Origin: a virus
DNA: 11,181 nt
Virus genome (UHGV): UHGV-0130923
Reading direction: 5' to 3' (one strand)
The notes below the pieces were generated by a model. The model worked only from the letters and a program-made list of their open reading frames with translations. It was not told where the DNA came from and searched no databases. The translations under genes and the position numbers were made by a program. Positions 3,105 through 11,181 of the stretch are shown here, one piece after another; within the stretch, counting starts at the first letter, position 1, and each line of letters begins with the position of its first letter.

Positions 3105-3189
3105 TGATCGATTCATAAAAACGACGAAACCCGGCAGTGCGCGAACACTAACCGGGCTTCTAACCAAACCGTTAAACGAGGTAACGATT

Positions 3190-3555
3190 ATGGCTGGAAC
3201 ACAGCATACCCAAACTCACCCTAAATTTATATACACCTTTGTGGCACTACACCACGACCGCATGGCAGATGGAGCAACTACGGTACATGTTGCCGCTGAC
3301 ACGCTGGTTGATGCCCGCAAGATGGTTAAGGAGATGGGCTATACTGCGGCTTTCTGGAAAGGGCGTGAAGAAAACACGCTGTTTATTCAGAAATGCGAAA
3401 ACAATTTCATCTGGCGTTTTATCGCCCTGAGCACCGCACAACCACGCGTAATACACATCGTGGCCACCAGCGAACAGGAAGCCCGCCAGCAATCCCCGGC
3501 TGGTTGCGTGATGGTATTCGCCGCCCGTATTCGTCAGGAGGTATGCCGTGCTTAA
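3190..3555 (+). CDS. Hypothetical protein, first gene of the plus-strand early operon
   Basis: ATG at 3190 preceded by GAGGT at 3179-3183. This is the in-frame internal start of track ORF 2641..3555, whose upstream part overlaps the opposite-strand gene and the operator region. Confidence 0.5.
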   Translation: MAGTQHTQTHPKFIYTFVALHHDRMADGATTVHVAADTLVDARKMVKEMGYTAAFWKGREENTLFIQKCENNFIWRFIALSTAQPRVIHIVATSEQEARQQSPAGCVMVFAARIRQEVCRA

Positions 3556-4358: not shown

Positions 4359-6110
4359 ATGAAGAGCGCACCGAACCTAAAAAAACAGCCGCGCGACAAG
4401 ATGACAGAAGTTATTATTTTTGCGGGTAGTGATGCGTGGAGCCATGCGAAAGAGTGGCAGGAATGGGCGGGTAAACATATTGCCGCCGACGATGTGCCGC
4501 CTGTCGTGCTGGCTGATGAGCAACTGAAAAATATCACCGATTACCGGATCATTGATGAAGATCGTCAGTGTGTGCGTGTTTACCGCGCAGGACATATCAC
4601 AGAGCACAGCATGACGCAGATTGTTACGTTACTGGCTGTGGCTGGAGTGAAGACCGTACACGAATACGCGGGGATTACTGACACCAGCCCCGTGGATTTA
4701 TCCGACCAGTTGCCGCGACTCAAAGAGGAATGCGAGCGTGGGGAAAGTCTGGTGCTTAATCTTCCGACGAAGCAAAAGGCGCAACTTTCACAGATGGCAG
4801 ACAGTGAACGTGCACAACTACTTGCCGATCGCTTTGATGGTGTGTGTGTTCATGCAGAAAGTGAAATCGTCCACGTATGGCGCGGCGGGGTATGGTGTCC
4901 GGTCAGCACAATGGAGCTGAGCCGCGAAATGGTGGCGATCTATTCAGAGCACAGGGCCACATTCAGCAAGCGTGCAATTAATAACGCCGTGGAGGCGTTA
5001 AAAGTTATTGCCGACCCCATGGGGGAGCCGTCCGGTGATTTGCTACCGTTCGCCAATGGTGTGCTTGACCTGAAAACGGGGGAATTTTCCCCGCACTCGC
5101 CGGAGAACTGGATCACCACGCACAACGGCATTGAGTACACGCCACCAGCACCAGGGGAGAACATCCGCGACAACGCGCCAAACTTTCATAAATGGCTTGA
5201 TCACGCAGCCGGAAAAGACCCACGCAAGATGATGCGTATATGTGCCGCGCTGTACATGATTATGGCGAACCGGTACGACTGGCAGATGTTTATTGAGGCC
5301 ACCGGAGACGGCGGGAGCGGAAAGAGTACATTCACGCACATAGCCAGCCTTCTGGCAGGGAAACAGAACACGGTAAGCGCTGAAATGACTTCGCTTGATG
5401 ATGCTGGTGGGCGTGCTCAGGTTGTCGGGAGTCGTCTTATCGTCCTGGCTGACCAGCCGAAATATACAGGCGAAGGCACGGGCATCAAGAAAATCACGGG
5501 CGGCGACCCCGTGGAAATAAACCCGAAATATGAAAAGCGTTTTACGGCGGTAATCAGGGCGGTGGTGCTGGCTACCAACAATAACCCGATGATATTCACC
5601 GAACGGGCCGGAGGTGTGTCACGTCGTCGCGTAATTTTCCGCTTCGACAATATCGTTAGCGAGGCAGAAAAGGACAAGGATTTACCGGAGAAGGTCGCGG
5701 CTGAAATCCCCGTGATTATCCGCAGATTGCTGGCAAACTTTGCTGATCCAGAAAAGGCGCGACATTTGTTGATTGAACAGCGCGACGGTGAAGAAGCACT
5801 GGCGATAAAGCAACAGACGGATCCGGTTATTGAGTTTTGCCAGTTTCTGAATTTTCTGGAGGAAGCGCGCGGCCTGATGATGGGTGGCGGTGGCGATTCC
5901 GTGAAGTACACGACCAGAAACAGCCTTTACCGCGTCTATCTGGCGTTTATGGCATACGCAGGCAGAAGCAAGCCGCTAAACGTGGCTGATTTCAGCAAGG
6001 CCATGAAGCCAGCGGCGAAAGTTTACGGATGTGAATATATAACGCGCAGGGTTAAAGGACTTACGCAAACCAATGTGACAACAACAGAGGATTGCGACGC
6101 GTTTTTATAA
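4359..6110 (+). CDS. Primase-helicase family replication protein (P4 alpha C-terminal / D5-like NTPase)
   Basis: 583 aa with a Walker A P-loop GDGGSGKST and a downstream hydrophobic strand ending in acidic residues (RLIVLADQP), Walker B-like. AGGGGG ribosome-binding site before the ATG at 4359. An iteron array lies immediately downstream. Confidence 0.75.
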   Translation: MKSAPNLKKQPRDKMTEVIIFAGSDAWSHAKEWQEWAGKHIAADDVPPVVLADEQLKNITDYRIIDEDRQCVRVYRAGHITEHSMTQIVTLLAVAGVKTVHEYAGITDTSPVDLSDQLPRLKEECERGESLVLNLPTKQKAQLSQMADSERAQLLADRFDGVCVHAESEIVHVWRGGVWCPVSTMELSREMVAIYSEHRATFSKRAINNAVEALKVIADPMGEPSGDLLPFANGVLDLKTGEFSPHSPENWITTHNGIEYTPPAPGENIRDNAPNFHKWLDHAAGKDPRKMMRICAALYMIMANRYDWQMFIEATGDGGSGKSTFTHIASLLAGKQNTVSAEMTSLDDAGGRAQVVGSRLIVLADQPKYTGEGTGIKKITGGDPVEINPKYEKRFTAVIRAVVLATNNNPMIFTERAGGVSRRRVIFRFDNIVSEAEKDKDLPEKVAAEIPVIIRRLLANFADPEKARHLLIEQRDGEEALAIKQQTDPVIEFCQFLNFLEEARGLMMGGGGDSVKYTTRNSLYRVYLAFMAYAGRSKPLNVADFSKAMKPAAKVYGCEYITRRVKGLTQTNVTTTEDCDAFL

Positions 6111-6120
6111 TTTTAGACAA

Positions 6121-6353
6121 AAGCCCTCTACCTCCTCTACCTAAAGAAAATAAATATATATTATTCAATATGATAAGCAGGTAGAGGGCTAGGTAGAAGG
6201 CAAATAAAAGCCCTCTACCTCCTCCACCATGATTAAGGTCATTTGTGAGGGGCGGGTAGAGGATGGGTAGAGGGCCCCGAAAGCCCTCTACCCATCTGAA
6301 AGCCGCGCCATTACTGACCTGAAAGATGATTAGGTAGAGAGGTAGAGGAGGTG
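6121..6353. repeat. Iteron array, putative island origin of replication
   Basis: About 11 copies of CCTCTACC / GGTAGAGG in alternating orientation (for example 6124-6141, 6180-6200, 6210-6227, 6254-6274, 6284-6293, 6333-6351), with an AT-rich stretch at 6142-6180, directly after the primase-helicase gene. Confidence 0.65.
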
Positions 6354-6396
6354 CACCACATTTCAAAACTTTTTAAACGAGGGGGTAAAAATAAAA

Positions 6397-6654
6397 ATGC
6401 ACACATCAGGAAAACTGAACAAACATATAAAGCCACATTACCGCGCCCTTGATATGGCTGAACACTGGCTAAGGGTGGCGATTAAGGCAATAGATCGCAA
6501 CGCCGGGGAAGGATACGCGAAAGCACATCCCGAACTGATAAGCGCATTCATGACAACGGCGGCTGCAAACTTTGCCACGCTGACCGAACGGGAGATTGCC
6601 GAAGCGGAGGAAGTGACAACCATCAATATTAAGTCCGGAGAGCAGGCAGCATGA
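6397..6654 (+). CDS. Hypothetical protein
   Basis: 85-aa ORF with GAGGGGG upstream; its stop overlaps the start of the SSB-like gene (ATGA). Confidence 0.45.
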   Translation: MHTSGKLNKHIKPHYRALDMAEHWLRVAIKAIDRNAGEGYAKAHPELISAFMTTAAANFATLTEREIAEAEEVTTINIKSGEQAA

Positions 6655-7073
6655 CGGCGCAAATATCAGTTTACGGGAGGTTGGTGGACGACCCGCAGAC
6701 AAAACAGACCAGCAAGGGCATCCCCATGACGCTGGCGCGTATGGCGGTATCACTGCCCTGCAGTCAGTCGGATGACGGTCAGGCGACGATGTGGTTATCT
6801 GTCCTGGCGTTTGGCAGACAAGCCGACACGCTGGCAAAGCATCACAAAGGCGAACTCCTGAGCGTGGCGGGTAACATGCAGGTGAGCCAGTGGACTGGAC
6901 AGAACGGTGAAACGCGGCAGGGCTGGCAGGTTATCGCAGACAGTGTAATCAGTGCCAGAACGGCGCGACCGGGCGGCAAAAAAGGTCAACAGGGCCAGGC
7001 TACTGACGCACTGAACAGGGCAAAACAACAGTCGGGGAATGATGATCCGTACGGCGATAATATACCGTTTTAA
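6651..7073 (+). CDS. ssb: Single-stranded DNA-binding protein-like (OB fold with an acidic C-terminal tail)
   Basis: 140 aa. The N-terminus ISVYGRLVDDPQ and the spaced W/G/F pattern resemble SSB OB folds, followed by a Gly/Gln-rich linker. The C-terminal DDPYGDNIPF resembles the E. coli SSB tail DFDDDIPF. Confidence 0.6.
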   Translation: MTAQISVYGRLVDDPQTKQTSKGIPMTLARMAVSLPCSQSDDGQATMWLSVLAFGRQADTLAKHHKGELLSVAGNMQVSQWTGQNGETRQGWQVIADSVISARTARPGGKKGQQGQATDALNRAKQQSGNDDPYGDNIPF

Positions 7074-9103: not shown

Positions 9104-9167
9104 GGGTCCTTTCCGGCGATCCGACAGGTTACGGGGCGGCGACCTCGCGGGTTTTCGCTATTTATGA
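9104..9167. other. Lambda-type cos site (cosQ-side sequence, cosN GGGCGGCGACCT at 9134-9145, first cosB element)
   Basis: GGGTCCTTTCCGGCGATCCGACAGGTTACG-GGGCGGCGACCT-CGCGGGTTTTCGCTATTTATGA matches the lambda genome ends as I recall them (right end ...CCGACAGGTTACG, left end GGGCGGCGACCTCGCGGGTTTTCGCTATTTATGA...). Sequence after 9167 no longer matches lambda cosB. A Nu1-like gene follows ~150 bp downstream, as in lambda. Confidence 0.8.
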
Positions 9168-9293
9168 GCATTTTTAGGGGACTGGTGGTGGTTTTGTTGT
9201 TCGCTATATCTGTATGAATAATAAGAGAAAAACACAATCAACACACCAACCTGAAACAGTAATTAAGTTGTGGTATCAATGAAATTGCACCTG

Positions 9294-9821
9294 ATGAACA
9301 AAAAAAACATGGCAAAAAGTTGCCGTGTAAGCGCCACTGCGTTCGATAAGTGGGGAGTGATTCCCGTCGAGCGTAAGGGCCGCGAGGCGTTTTATGATGT
9401 CGCCAGTGTAATAGATAATCGGGTTAACAATGCAATCAGCCAGATTACAAACGAAACGGGCGAGATTGATGATGATGAACTCCTACGAGTCAGGATCAGA
9501 TTGCTGACAGCACAGGCAGAGGCGCAGGAGCTTAAAAACGAGCGCGAACGCGGCGACGTTATTGATACAGCGTTTTGTATATACGTGCTTTCAAAACTGG
9601 CGAGTCAGATTTCTTCAATCATGGACAGCCTGCCGCTTGCCATGACAAGGAAGTTTCCCGACATGAAGCCGTCTATGCTGGATGGACTGAAAAAAGAAGT
9701 TATCAGAGCCTGTAACGCATGCGCAAAACTTGACGAAAACATACCGCTGATGCTGTCCGATTATCTGATGGAAACTGCCGGAAACGTACCGGATAAGTTG
9801 CAGCTGAATAAAGATAAGTAA
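9294..9821 (+). CDS. Nu1-like terminase small subunit
   Basis: LTAQAEAQELKNERERGDVIDTAFCIYVLSKLASQISSIMDSLPLAMTRKFP...LDENIPLMLSDYLMETAG parallels lambda Nu1 LTRAQADAQELKNARDSAEVVETAFCTFVLSRIAGEIASILDGLPLSVQRRFP...LDELIPGLLSEYIEQSG. Start chosen at ATG 9294 (MNKKNM...) by analogy with Nu1 MEVNKKQ; ATG 9279 and GTG 9270 are alternatives. Confidence 0.75.
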   Translation: MNKKNMAKSCRVSATAFDKWGVIPVERKGREAFYDVASVIDNRVNNAISQITNETGEIDDDELLRVRIRLLTAQAEAQELKNERERGDVIDTAFCIYVLSKLASQISSIMDSLPLAMTRKFPDMKPSMLDGLKKEVIRACNACAKLDENIPLMLSDYLMETAGNVPDKLQLNKDK

Positions 9822-10842: not shown

Positions 10843-10852
10843 AACCCAAGCA
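10843..10852. other. attR core: right copy of the 10-bp direct repeat AACCCAAGCA
   Basis: Identical to 84-93; the capsid reading frame resumes immediately (P-K-H-E-V-N-P-Q). Confidence 0.75.
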
Positions 10853-11181
10853 TGAGGTGAATCCGCAGATGACCCTGCGTCGCCTGCCGGATGAAGATCC
10901 GCAGAATCTGGCGGACCCGGCTTACCGCCGCCGTCGCATCATCATGCAGAACATGCGTGACGAAGAGCTGGCCATTGCTCAGGTCGAAGAGATGCAGGCA
11001 GTTTCTGCCGTGCTTAAGGGCAAATACACCATGACCGGTGAAGCCTTTGATCCGGTTGAGGTGGATATGGGGCGCAGTGCGGCGAACAACATCACACAGT
11101 CCGGTGGCACGGAGTGGAGCAAGCGCGACAAGTCCACGTATGACCCGACCGACGATATCGAAGCCTACGCGCTGAACGCCA
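10845..11181 (+). CDS. E: Lambda E-like major capsid protein, distal fragment of the helper prophage gene (runs off the window end)
   Basis: Frame from 10845 reads PKHEVNPQMTLRRLPDEDPQNLADPAYRRRRIIMQNMRDEELAIAQVEEMQAVSAVLKGKYTMTGEAFDPVEVDMGRSAANNITQSGGTEWSKRDKSTYDPTDDIEAYALNA, which continues lambda gpE from residue ~80 as I recall it. An in-frame TAA at 10842-10844 immediately precedes it. Confidence 0.8.

Follow-up and report, generated by a model that had tools for sequence, protein, structure and literature searches.

The window analysed here is a single stretch of 11,181 nucleotides (UHGV virus genome UHGV-0130923). Its two ends (positions 1-94 and 10845-11181) are the halves of a lambda gpE-like major capsid gene, broken at ...GYVKPKH / EVNPQMTLRR... 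by an inserted island of approximately 10.76 kb. On either side of the island is a copy of a 10-bp direct repeat, AACCCAAGCA (84-93 and 10843-10852), which was recognised by reading the junctions directly; a repeat search for att repeats of at least 14 nt found none. The gene order of the island is integrase, Icd-like region, Pri-Rep, the repeat array considered here, an 85-aa ORF, SSB, E-like capsid, D-like decoration, AlpA-like regulator and TerS. The features surrounding the array and its upstream gene are as follows:

206-1492, tyrosine integrase
6397-6654, plus strand, conserved 85-aa ORF (phrog_1231), found at the same position in loci L001-L011 and L139
6651-7073, plus strand, island SSB (Pfam SSB, 2.7e-16; TIGR00621, 60.5 against a cut-off of 53.95)
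9134-9145, exact lambda cosN (GGGCGGCGACCT), upstream of terS and with lambda-like flanks (9122-9170)
9270-9821, TerS

The capsid gene halves at the window ends, in combination with the 10-bp repeat, place the island in the capsid-gene group of helper-embedded PICIs reported by Mageeney et al. 2023 (PMC10111431). More specifically, the window represents an EcCICFT073-type Gram-negative PICI embedded in the capsid gene of a lambdoid prophage (published as "HE-PICI"). The island brings capsid and decoration genes of its own, which are E-like and D-like, respectively. Based on the exact lambda cosN and the lambda-like flanks upstream of terS, it is presumably packageable by a lambda-type terminase. 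The SSB-like gene that the first-pass annotation had placed downstream of the array is an SSB by its Pfam match and by a TIGR00621 score above cut-off. Small regulatory RNAs have been reported in the Icd-like zone of P4 and of PICIs, and the Icd-like region of the window resembles the SymR antitoxin sRNA at 3123-3195 on the minus strand, with an Rfam score below threshold (35.3 bits against a gathering threshold of 61; E = 0.0011). All Rfam matches in the window were sub-threshold, including two plant or animal miRNA families that fit the inverted repeats of the array.

The array starts 13 bp past the stop codon of Pri-Rep (6110) and ends 49 bp short of the next gene. It consists of 11 iterons within 6125-6348, lying in both orientations (GGTAGAGG/CCTCTACC), eight of them exact and three with one mismatch:

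6125-6141, minus strand, iterons 1-2 (at 6125 and 6134, both exact GGTAGAGG, reading CCTCTACC on the plus strand), bordering the AT-rich stretch on its left
6142-6178, AT-rich spacer (86% A+T), candidate DNA-unwinding element
6180-6199, plus strand, iterons 3-4 (at 6180, exact GGTAGAGG; at 6192, one mismatch, GGTAGAAG), right flank of the AT-rich stretch and inverted relative to iterons 1-2
6212-6228, minus strand, iterons 5-6 (at 6212, exact GGTAGAGG; at 6221, one mismatch, GGTGGAGG)
6255-6273, plus strand, iterons 7-8 (at 6255 and 6266, both exact GGTAGAGG), beginning of the right half, which resembles P4 crr
6285-6292, minus strand, iteron 9 (exact GGTAGAGG)
6296-6316, non-iteron block CTGAAAGCCGCGCCATTACTG, with a column identity of at least 85-97% across 73 distinct E. 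coli-type origins
6333-6348, plus strand, iterons 10-11 (at 6333, one mismatch, GGTAGAGA; at 6341, exact GGTAGAGG)

With ">" denoting CCTCTACC on the plus strand, the array reads >> (6125, 6134), AT-rich stretch (6142-6178), << (6180, 6192), >> (6212, 6221), << (6255, 6266), > (6285), 40-bp spacer, << (6333, 6341). Searched on both strands with up to one mismatch, GGTAGAGG matched 17 times in the 11-kb window, compared to 4.47 +/- 2.06 expected matches, and this count was reached by none of 200 shuffles. Eleven of the 17 matches fall in 6125-6348, and a scan of the whole window revealed no exact copy outside the array. Consistent results were obtained for the exact 7-mer GGTAGAG, with 10 matches against 0.61 expected, nine of which lie inside the array; five copies of the iteron extend to GCCCTCTACC. 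The array is single and contiguous, no second iteron cluster being present elsewhere in the window. The initial count of about 11 copies, in both orientations and arranged around an AT-rich stretch, was thereby confirmed.

Tandem iterons are spaced by 8-12 bp, i.e. about one helical turn. The two inverted iteron pairs (1-2 and 3-4) bracket the least stable 30-mer of the entire 11 kb (6142-6171; nearest-neighbour dG of -26.4 compared to a mean of -40.0, sd 3.9). Matches to the DnaA box and to the IHF site occurred at chance level over the window, and none was located among the iterons. The 40-bp spacer in the right half contains the 21-nt block CTGAAAGCCGCGCCATTACTG, which fits neither of these two consensus sequences.

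The gene directly upstream of the array (4359-6110) encodes a 583-aa "DNA primase family protein", a D5/SF3 helicase-type initiator (D5_N, DUF5906, TIGR01613) that we refer to as Pri-Rep. Its domains are:

4359-4778, plus strand, N-terminal domain (aa 1-140), Toprim-fold remnant and hypervariable allele region
4812-5816, plus strand, SF3 (D5-type) helicase core (Pfam D5_N, 1.4e-16; DUF5906, 3.9e-10; TIGR01613 above cut-off)
5817-6092, plus strand, C-terminal origin-binding domain (aa 487-578), a winged helix matching 1KA8

Residues 225-431 of Pri-Rep match the SaPI5 PriRep helicase 7OLA (E = 3.9e-14), and residues 487-578 match the origin-binding domain of P4 alpha, PDB 1KA8 (phmmer E = 2.8e-7; residues 2-92 of 100). 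For the latter domain, an AF2 model of low confidence (pLDDT 55.8) predicts the secondary structure H2-H3-beta-hairpin. The alignment behind this prediction was shallow, as the search for homologous proteins yielded near-identical E. coli proteins only. Two residues discussed below, A543 (5985-5987) and S546 (5994-5996), map to the start of the predicted helix 3.

The N-terminal domain is the most variable part of Pri-Rep, with 20-35% identity between alleles and no more than 89 representatives among 1.8 billion proteins. A profile search of this domain against PDB sequences returned nothing significant, so that a fold search was needed. In Pri-Rep, A22 and AGH stand where the structure would place the Toprim Glu and DxD: where P4 has the motifs LWIAEG and LAADRD, the Pri-Rep family has IIFAG and YRAGH, which are devoid of the conserved acid. 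Pri-Rep has no zinc finger. The name "primase" traces to TIGR01613, whose span corresponds to the helicase. Judging from these motifs, Pri-Rep is a helicase and origin binder with a degenerate Toprim domain and probably no active primase. Pri-Rep may thus have lost primase activity, in which case these satellites, unlike P4, would depend on host DnaG. The first-pass annotation had described the upstream gene as a primase-helicase initiator; the SF3 helicase initiator stands (D5_N, TIGR01613), whereas the primase label is doubtful given that the Toprim acids are gone. Thousands of E. coli proteins bear the same "primase" annotation, on which the degenerate Toprim domain casts doubt.

The model Gram-negative PICI, EcCICFT073, provides an experimentally characterised relative of this module. 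Its Pri-Rep is 83% identical to that of the window and nearly identical outside the N-terminal allele region, and the 288-bp region following its pri-rep gene aligns position for position with the window array. Fillol-Salom et al. 2018 (PMC6092414) reported that a pri-rep-ori segment of EcCICFT073 drives plasmid maintenance, and that deletion of either pri or ori abolishes it. The gene that we located in EcCICFT073 corresponds to the published pri, since the delta-pri primer (PMC6092414) contains the first two CFT073 iterons. Like the window, EcCICFT073 has its ori directly 3' of pri-rep, with 11 iterons built on a TCTACC core, an AT-rich spacer, the CTGAAAGCCGCGCCATTACTG block, and an orf and ssb downstream; the organisation of the island is also the same, including an E-like capsid gene (c1499) and a D-like decoration gene (c1500). 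The two islands differ in iteron dialect (CC.TCTACC in the window, CTGTCTACC in EcCICFT073), in the helix-3 residues of the initiator (A543/S546 versus N/G), in the orientation of one iteron (>> AT << >> versus >> AT < >>>), in the N-terminal allele of Pri-Rep, and in location, EcCICFT073 residing at a chromosomal site near roxA and pepT rather than in a prophage capsid gene. The comparison with origins of related islands, which the first-pass annotation had proposed, thus revealed a shared layout and, in the EcCICFT073 ori, a positional homologue. The window array displays the features of a PICI origin, i.e. a position 3' of pri-rep, inverted iterons across an AT-rich stretch, an initiator combining SF3 helicase and winged helix, and homology to a validated origin. 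It belongs to a class that has been described and tested, in a relative with an 83% identical initiator, and the location of PICI origins 3' of pri-rep is a published defining feature.

Conservation of the array was evaluated on 126 loci. Of these, 120 came from IMG/VR, where they were retrieved with a pattern located at the conserved 3' end of the intergenic region; the others were E. coli and Shigella loci. The set contains 74 distinct intergenic sequences, and 73 of them entered the alignment. A protein scan of genome contigs gave four loci, three of them useful, and no DNA match to the origin was found in the phage collection. Across the 73 distinct aligned sequences, the six-base cores TCTACC/GGTAGA show an invariance of 97% or more, while the spacers drift; the AT-rich stretch stays AT-rich in all relatives. 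The CTGAAAGCCGCGCCATTACTG block is near-invariant in the 73 distinct E. coli-type origins, irrespective of dialect, and is absent from the origins of Serratia, Morganella, Ant (see below) and P4.

Two iteron dialects are found in E. coli, CC[C/A/T]TCTACC and CT[G/A]TCTACC. The CC-type is that of the window and occurs also in O157-type cf-PICIs (L002, for example) and elsewhere; the CT-type is found in EcCICFT073, Nissle, Shigella and GN06489. The discriminating base is C in 82% of 358 sites of the one class and T in 94% of 445 sites of the other, and the switch is concerted, all eleven sites of an origin changing together. Moreover, the dialect tracks the helix residues LNVA[D/E]FSKAM versus L[N/S]VN[D/E]FGKAM (A543/S546 versus N/G) in 73 of 74 distinct loci. 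Alignment with 1KA8 and the low-confidence model place both residues in the first turn of the helix preceding the beta-hairpin wing. The one mismatch is L046 (IMGVR_UViG_3300029303_000153), in which A..S helix residues are paired with T-type CTGTCTACC iterons and a T-type C-terminal tail. On account of this pairing, the two residues may not be the sole determinants of specificity, or L046 may be defective: either the locus arose by crossover and has a crippled replicon, or it is evidence against a deciding role of the two residues in specificity. The association of helix and dialect could also reflect plain linkage, the two lying less than 200 bp apart, together with shared ancestry. Yeo et al. 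in 2002 reportedly modelled the P4 origin-binding domain on RFX1, in which the wing rather than helix 3 is said to read the major groove. Because the model is of low confidence and an RFX1-type wing would read the major groove, we infer the role of A543/S546 rather than assign it.

The closest whole-island relative, L001 from E. coli GN06489, is 100% identical to the window over 4550-4900 and 80-90% identical over 4950-6100; identity drops to 44-65% in the array and returns to 99-100% from 6379 onwards. Given that both flanks are 99-100% identical to L001, the helicase, the binding domain and the origin (4950-6370) were exchanged as one cassette. Pairs of islands of the same dialect and of mixed dialect within one genome were both seen, in four genomes only, a number too small to bear on incompatibility. 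The two dialects may represent orthogonal replicon specificities that are set by A543/S546 versus N/G and swapped as a cassette. Such a two-residue, one-to-two-base specificity switch would offer researchers working on satellite replication a simple test case.

Next to the PICIs, P4 provides a more distant term of comparison, for which we used the features annotated in GenBank NC_001609. In this record the alpha gene is directly followed at its 3' end by crr, with ori at a distance of about 4.5 kb; the type 1 repeat TGTTCACC makes up both elements. Read in the alpha sense, the P4 ori is arranged as >> [35 bp AT-rich] < [18] >>> and the crr unit as < >>> [35-40] <<. The left half of the window array is colinear with the P4 ori, including a conserved CA.TA in the AT-rich spacer that both have in common, and the right half (6255-6348) is colinear with the P4 crr unit. 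CT-type E. coli origins, including that of EcCICFT073, show the exact P4 ori pattern, from which the window type deviates by one flipped iteron. Similar to the window, P4 has an initiator that joins an alpha-type origin-binding domain (1KA8 match) to an SF3 helicase. However, ori and crr of P4 are about 4.5 kb apart and the crr unit is duplicated, whereas the two halves in the window are contiguous and each present once, so that the window origin is not bipartite. P4 alpha further possesses a zinc finger and an intact Toprim primase, neither of which is recognisable in the sequence of the window Pri-Rep.

The window iteron CCTCTACC matches P4 TGTTCACC at 4 of 8 positions and does not qualify as a type 1 iteron. 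The first-pass annotation was thus correct in stating that the motif differs from the P4 iteron, yet the motif is a diverged version of it. Relatives with 42-52% protein identity keep the window layout with other iterons, namely CTGTTCAC in Serratia (L013), TGTTCAT in Morganella and GTGTTCACC, the P4 iteron, in vB_KppS-Ant. The last of these, an induced element of 16.5 kb (L017; LR881103.1, 'Escherichia phage vB_KppS-Ant'), is recorded as a phage; with genes for an integrase, Pri-Rep, capsid, portal and terminase it looks like a capsid-forming satellite. Its origin combines the unaltered P4 iteron TGTTCACC with the layout of a PICI and for this reason constitutes a link between P4 and PICI origins. 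Since CTGTCTACC, TGTTCAT and TGTTCACC all occur in relatives whose origins have this layout, the window motif is a diverged member of the P4 iteron lineage, and a homologous domain is predicted to bind it.

The enterobacterial PICI origin may accordingly be a compact fusion of the separate ori and crr of P4, with the compact form probably being ancestral. The three linked readings, i.e. a compact ori-crr fusion, orthogonal dialects specified by two residues, and the loss of primase, are put forward jointly as a tentative proposal, with the odds somewhat against all of them holding together. The 2018 PICI description (PMC6092414) treated PICI origins as unrelated to P4 ori/crr, a statement that is qualified by the colinearity of the two. 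The resulting link of PICI origins to P4 ori/crr is a useful side result for the study of satellite replication. Three modest additions, namely the P4 ori/crr colinearity, the dialect switch at two residues and the degeneracy of the Toprim domain, were not found in the literature consulted.

Origins of SaPIs share the general architecture of the window array. SaPI Rep proteins bind 6-12 iterons 3' of rep by means of a C-terminal winged helix and load themselves (PMC9371898). As in the window, SaPI origins are located directly 3' of rep and have an AT-rich centre with at least two opposed iterons on each side (PMC9371898), and their initiator combines an SF3 helicase with a winged helix at the C-terminus, in line with the match of the window core to SaPI5 PriRep 7OLA. 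In contrast to the window, SaPI iterons are 5-6 nt long and unrelated in sequence, the primase is active and either separate or fused, and there is no crr-like second half. Iteron plasmids of the pSC101, R6K, RK2 and P1 type also have initiator sites beside an AT-rich unwinding element. Their iterons are, however, direct repeats of 17-22 bp, compared to repeats of 8-10 bp in both orientations in the window, which sets the array apart from the plasmid class; they moreover use a tandem-winged-helix Rep without helicase and rely on DnaA boxes and DnaB loading, while the initiator encoded in the window is itself the helicase.

Together, these data indicate that 6123-6348 is very probably the vegetative replication origin of an EcCICFT073-type Gram-negative PICI. 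The self-contained replication module that had been proposed at the outset is supported by the 1KA8-type initiator, the positional homology with EcCICFT073, the colinearity with P4 ori/crr and the conservation of the array. In annotating a helper-embedded PICI, the array can be used to locate the replication module and to tell the origin apart from the cos site.

It is conceivable, though unlikely, that the array is a true origin by descent that is no longer used, the island being copied passively by replication of the helper prophage. The location inside a lambdoid capsid gene would suit such passive copying, as would the behaviour of 11capE, a capsid-gene-embedded PICI for which attP:attB was near 1 in two of three induction repeats, denoting little post-excision replication, and 1.6-1.9 in the third (PMC10111431). 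These ratios suggest that autonomous replication of embedded islands may be weak under those conditions, and our most serious reservation is that the origin may contribute little in the embedded configuration. However, the 11 iterons, the helicase motifs and the SSB are all intact in the window, and the iteron cores are strongly conserved among the 73 distinct sequences, which derive from embedded as well as chromosomal islands. Furthermore, the fact that helicase, binding domain and origin were swapped as an intact cassette implies that the replication module is under selection.

The array might alternatively serve as an operator, its repeats being bound by Pri-Rep or a different regulator to control transcription of the operon downstream (orf85, ssb and the capsid genes) rather than to start replication. 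Initiators of iteron replicons often autoregulate, and the array fills the only sizeable intergenic gap of a unidirectional operon, just upstream of a conserved ribosome-binding region. Yet neither a sigma-70-like promoter nor a terminator was found in 5900-6700, the repeats are arranged colinearly with those of P4 ori/crr and of the EcCICFT073 ori, which has been tested, and a stretch of minimum stability placed between inverted iterons is a feature of origins. An operator function in place of replication is therefore quite improbable, while a regulatory side-role beside origin function is possible.

That the repeats form a packaging recognition site (cosB- or pac-like) for the small terminase of the island is highly improbable. 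The island does encode a TerS, and terminase sites are often repeated, but the exact lambda cosN lies outside 6111-6360, just upstream of terS, on which ground the packaging site was rejected, and the iteron dialect tracks the initiator binding domain and not TerS. Finally, although the minus strand has an open frame of 101 aa across the region (6061-6366), the chance that the repeats arose by coincidence, by low complexity or as a by-product of this ORF is negligible, because no shuffle reached the observed count, the frame is not conserved (broken to at most 50 aa in T-type relatives) and hence rejected, and the layout is kept out to Serratia and Morganella.

For the array as a replication origin, we infer from its structure, conservation and homologies how binding, melting, helicase loading and priming may proceed. 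After induction, Pri-Rep would bind the eleven CCTCTACC iterons through its C-terminal P4-alpha-type winged helix, and the inverted iteron pairs around 6142-6178 would set helicase oligomers face to face across the AT-rich stretch. This stretch would then melt, allowing the SF3 helicase to load itself in the manner of SaPI Rep proteins and of P4 alpha, a helicase that self-loads at its origin. The island SSB (6651-7073) would coat the single strands. As the Toprim domain of the initiator is devoid of catalytic acidic residues, primers would most likely be supplied by host DnaG, and the host polymerase would copy the island. The copies would later be cut at the lambda-type cos (9134-9145) and packaged. 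The crr-like right half (6255-6348) would probably act as a cis-acting enhancer or as a second loading platform, an element that P4 keeps 4.5 kb from its ori.

The phrog_1231 ORF is always located between origin and ssb, and overlaps the start of the latter. This 85-aa ORF may be a further component of the replication module.
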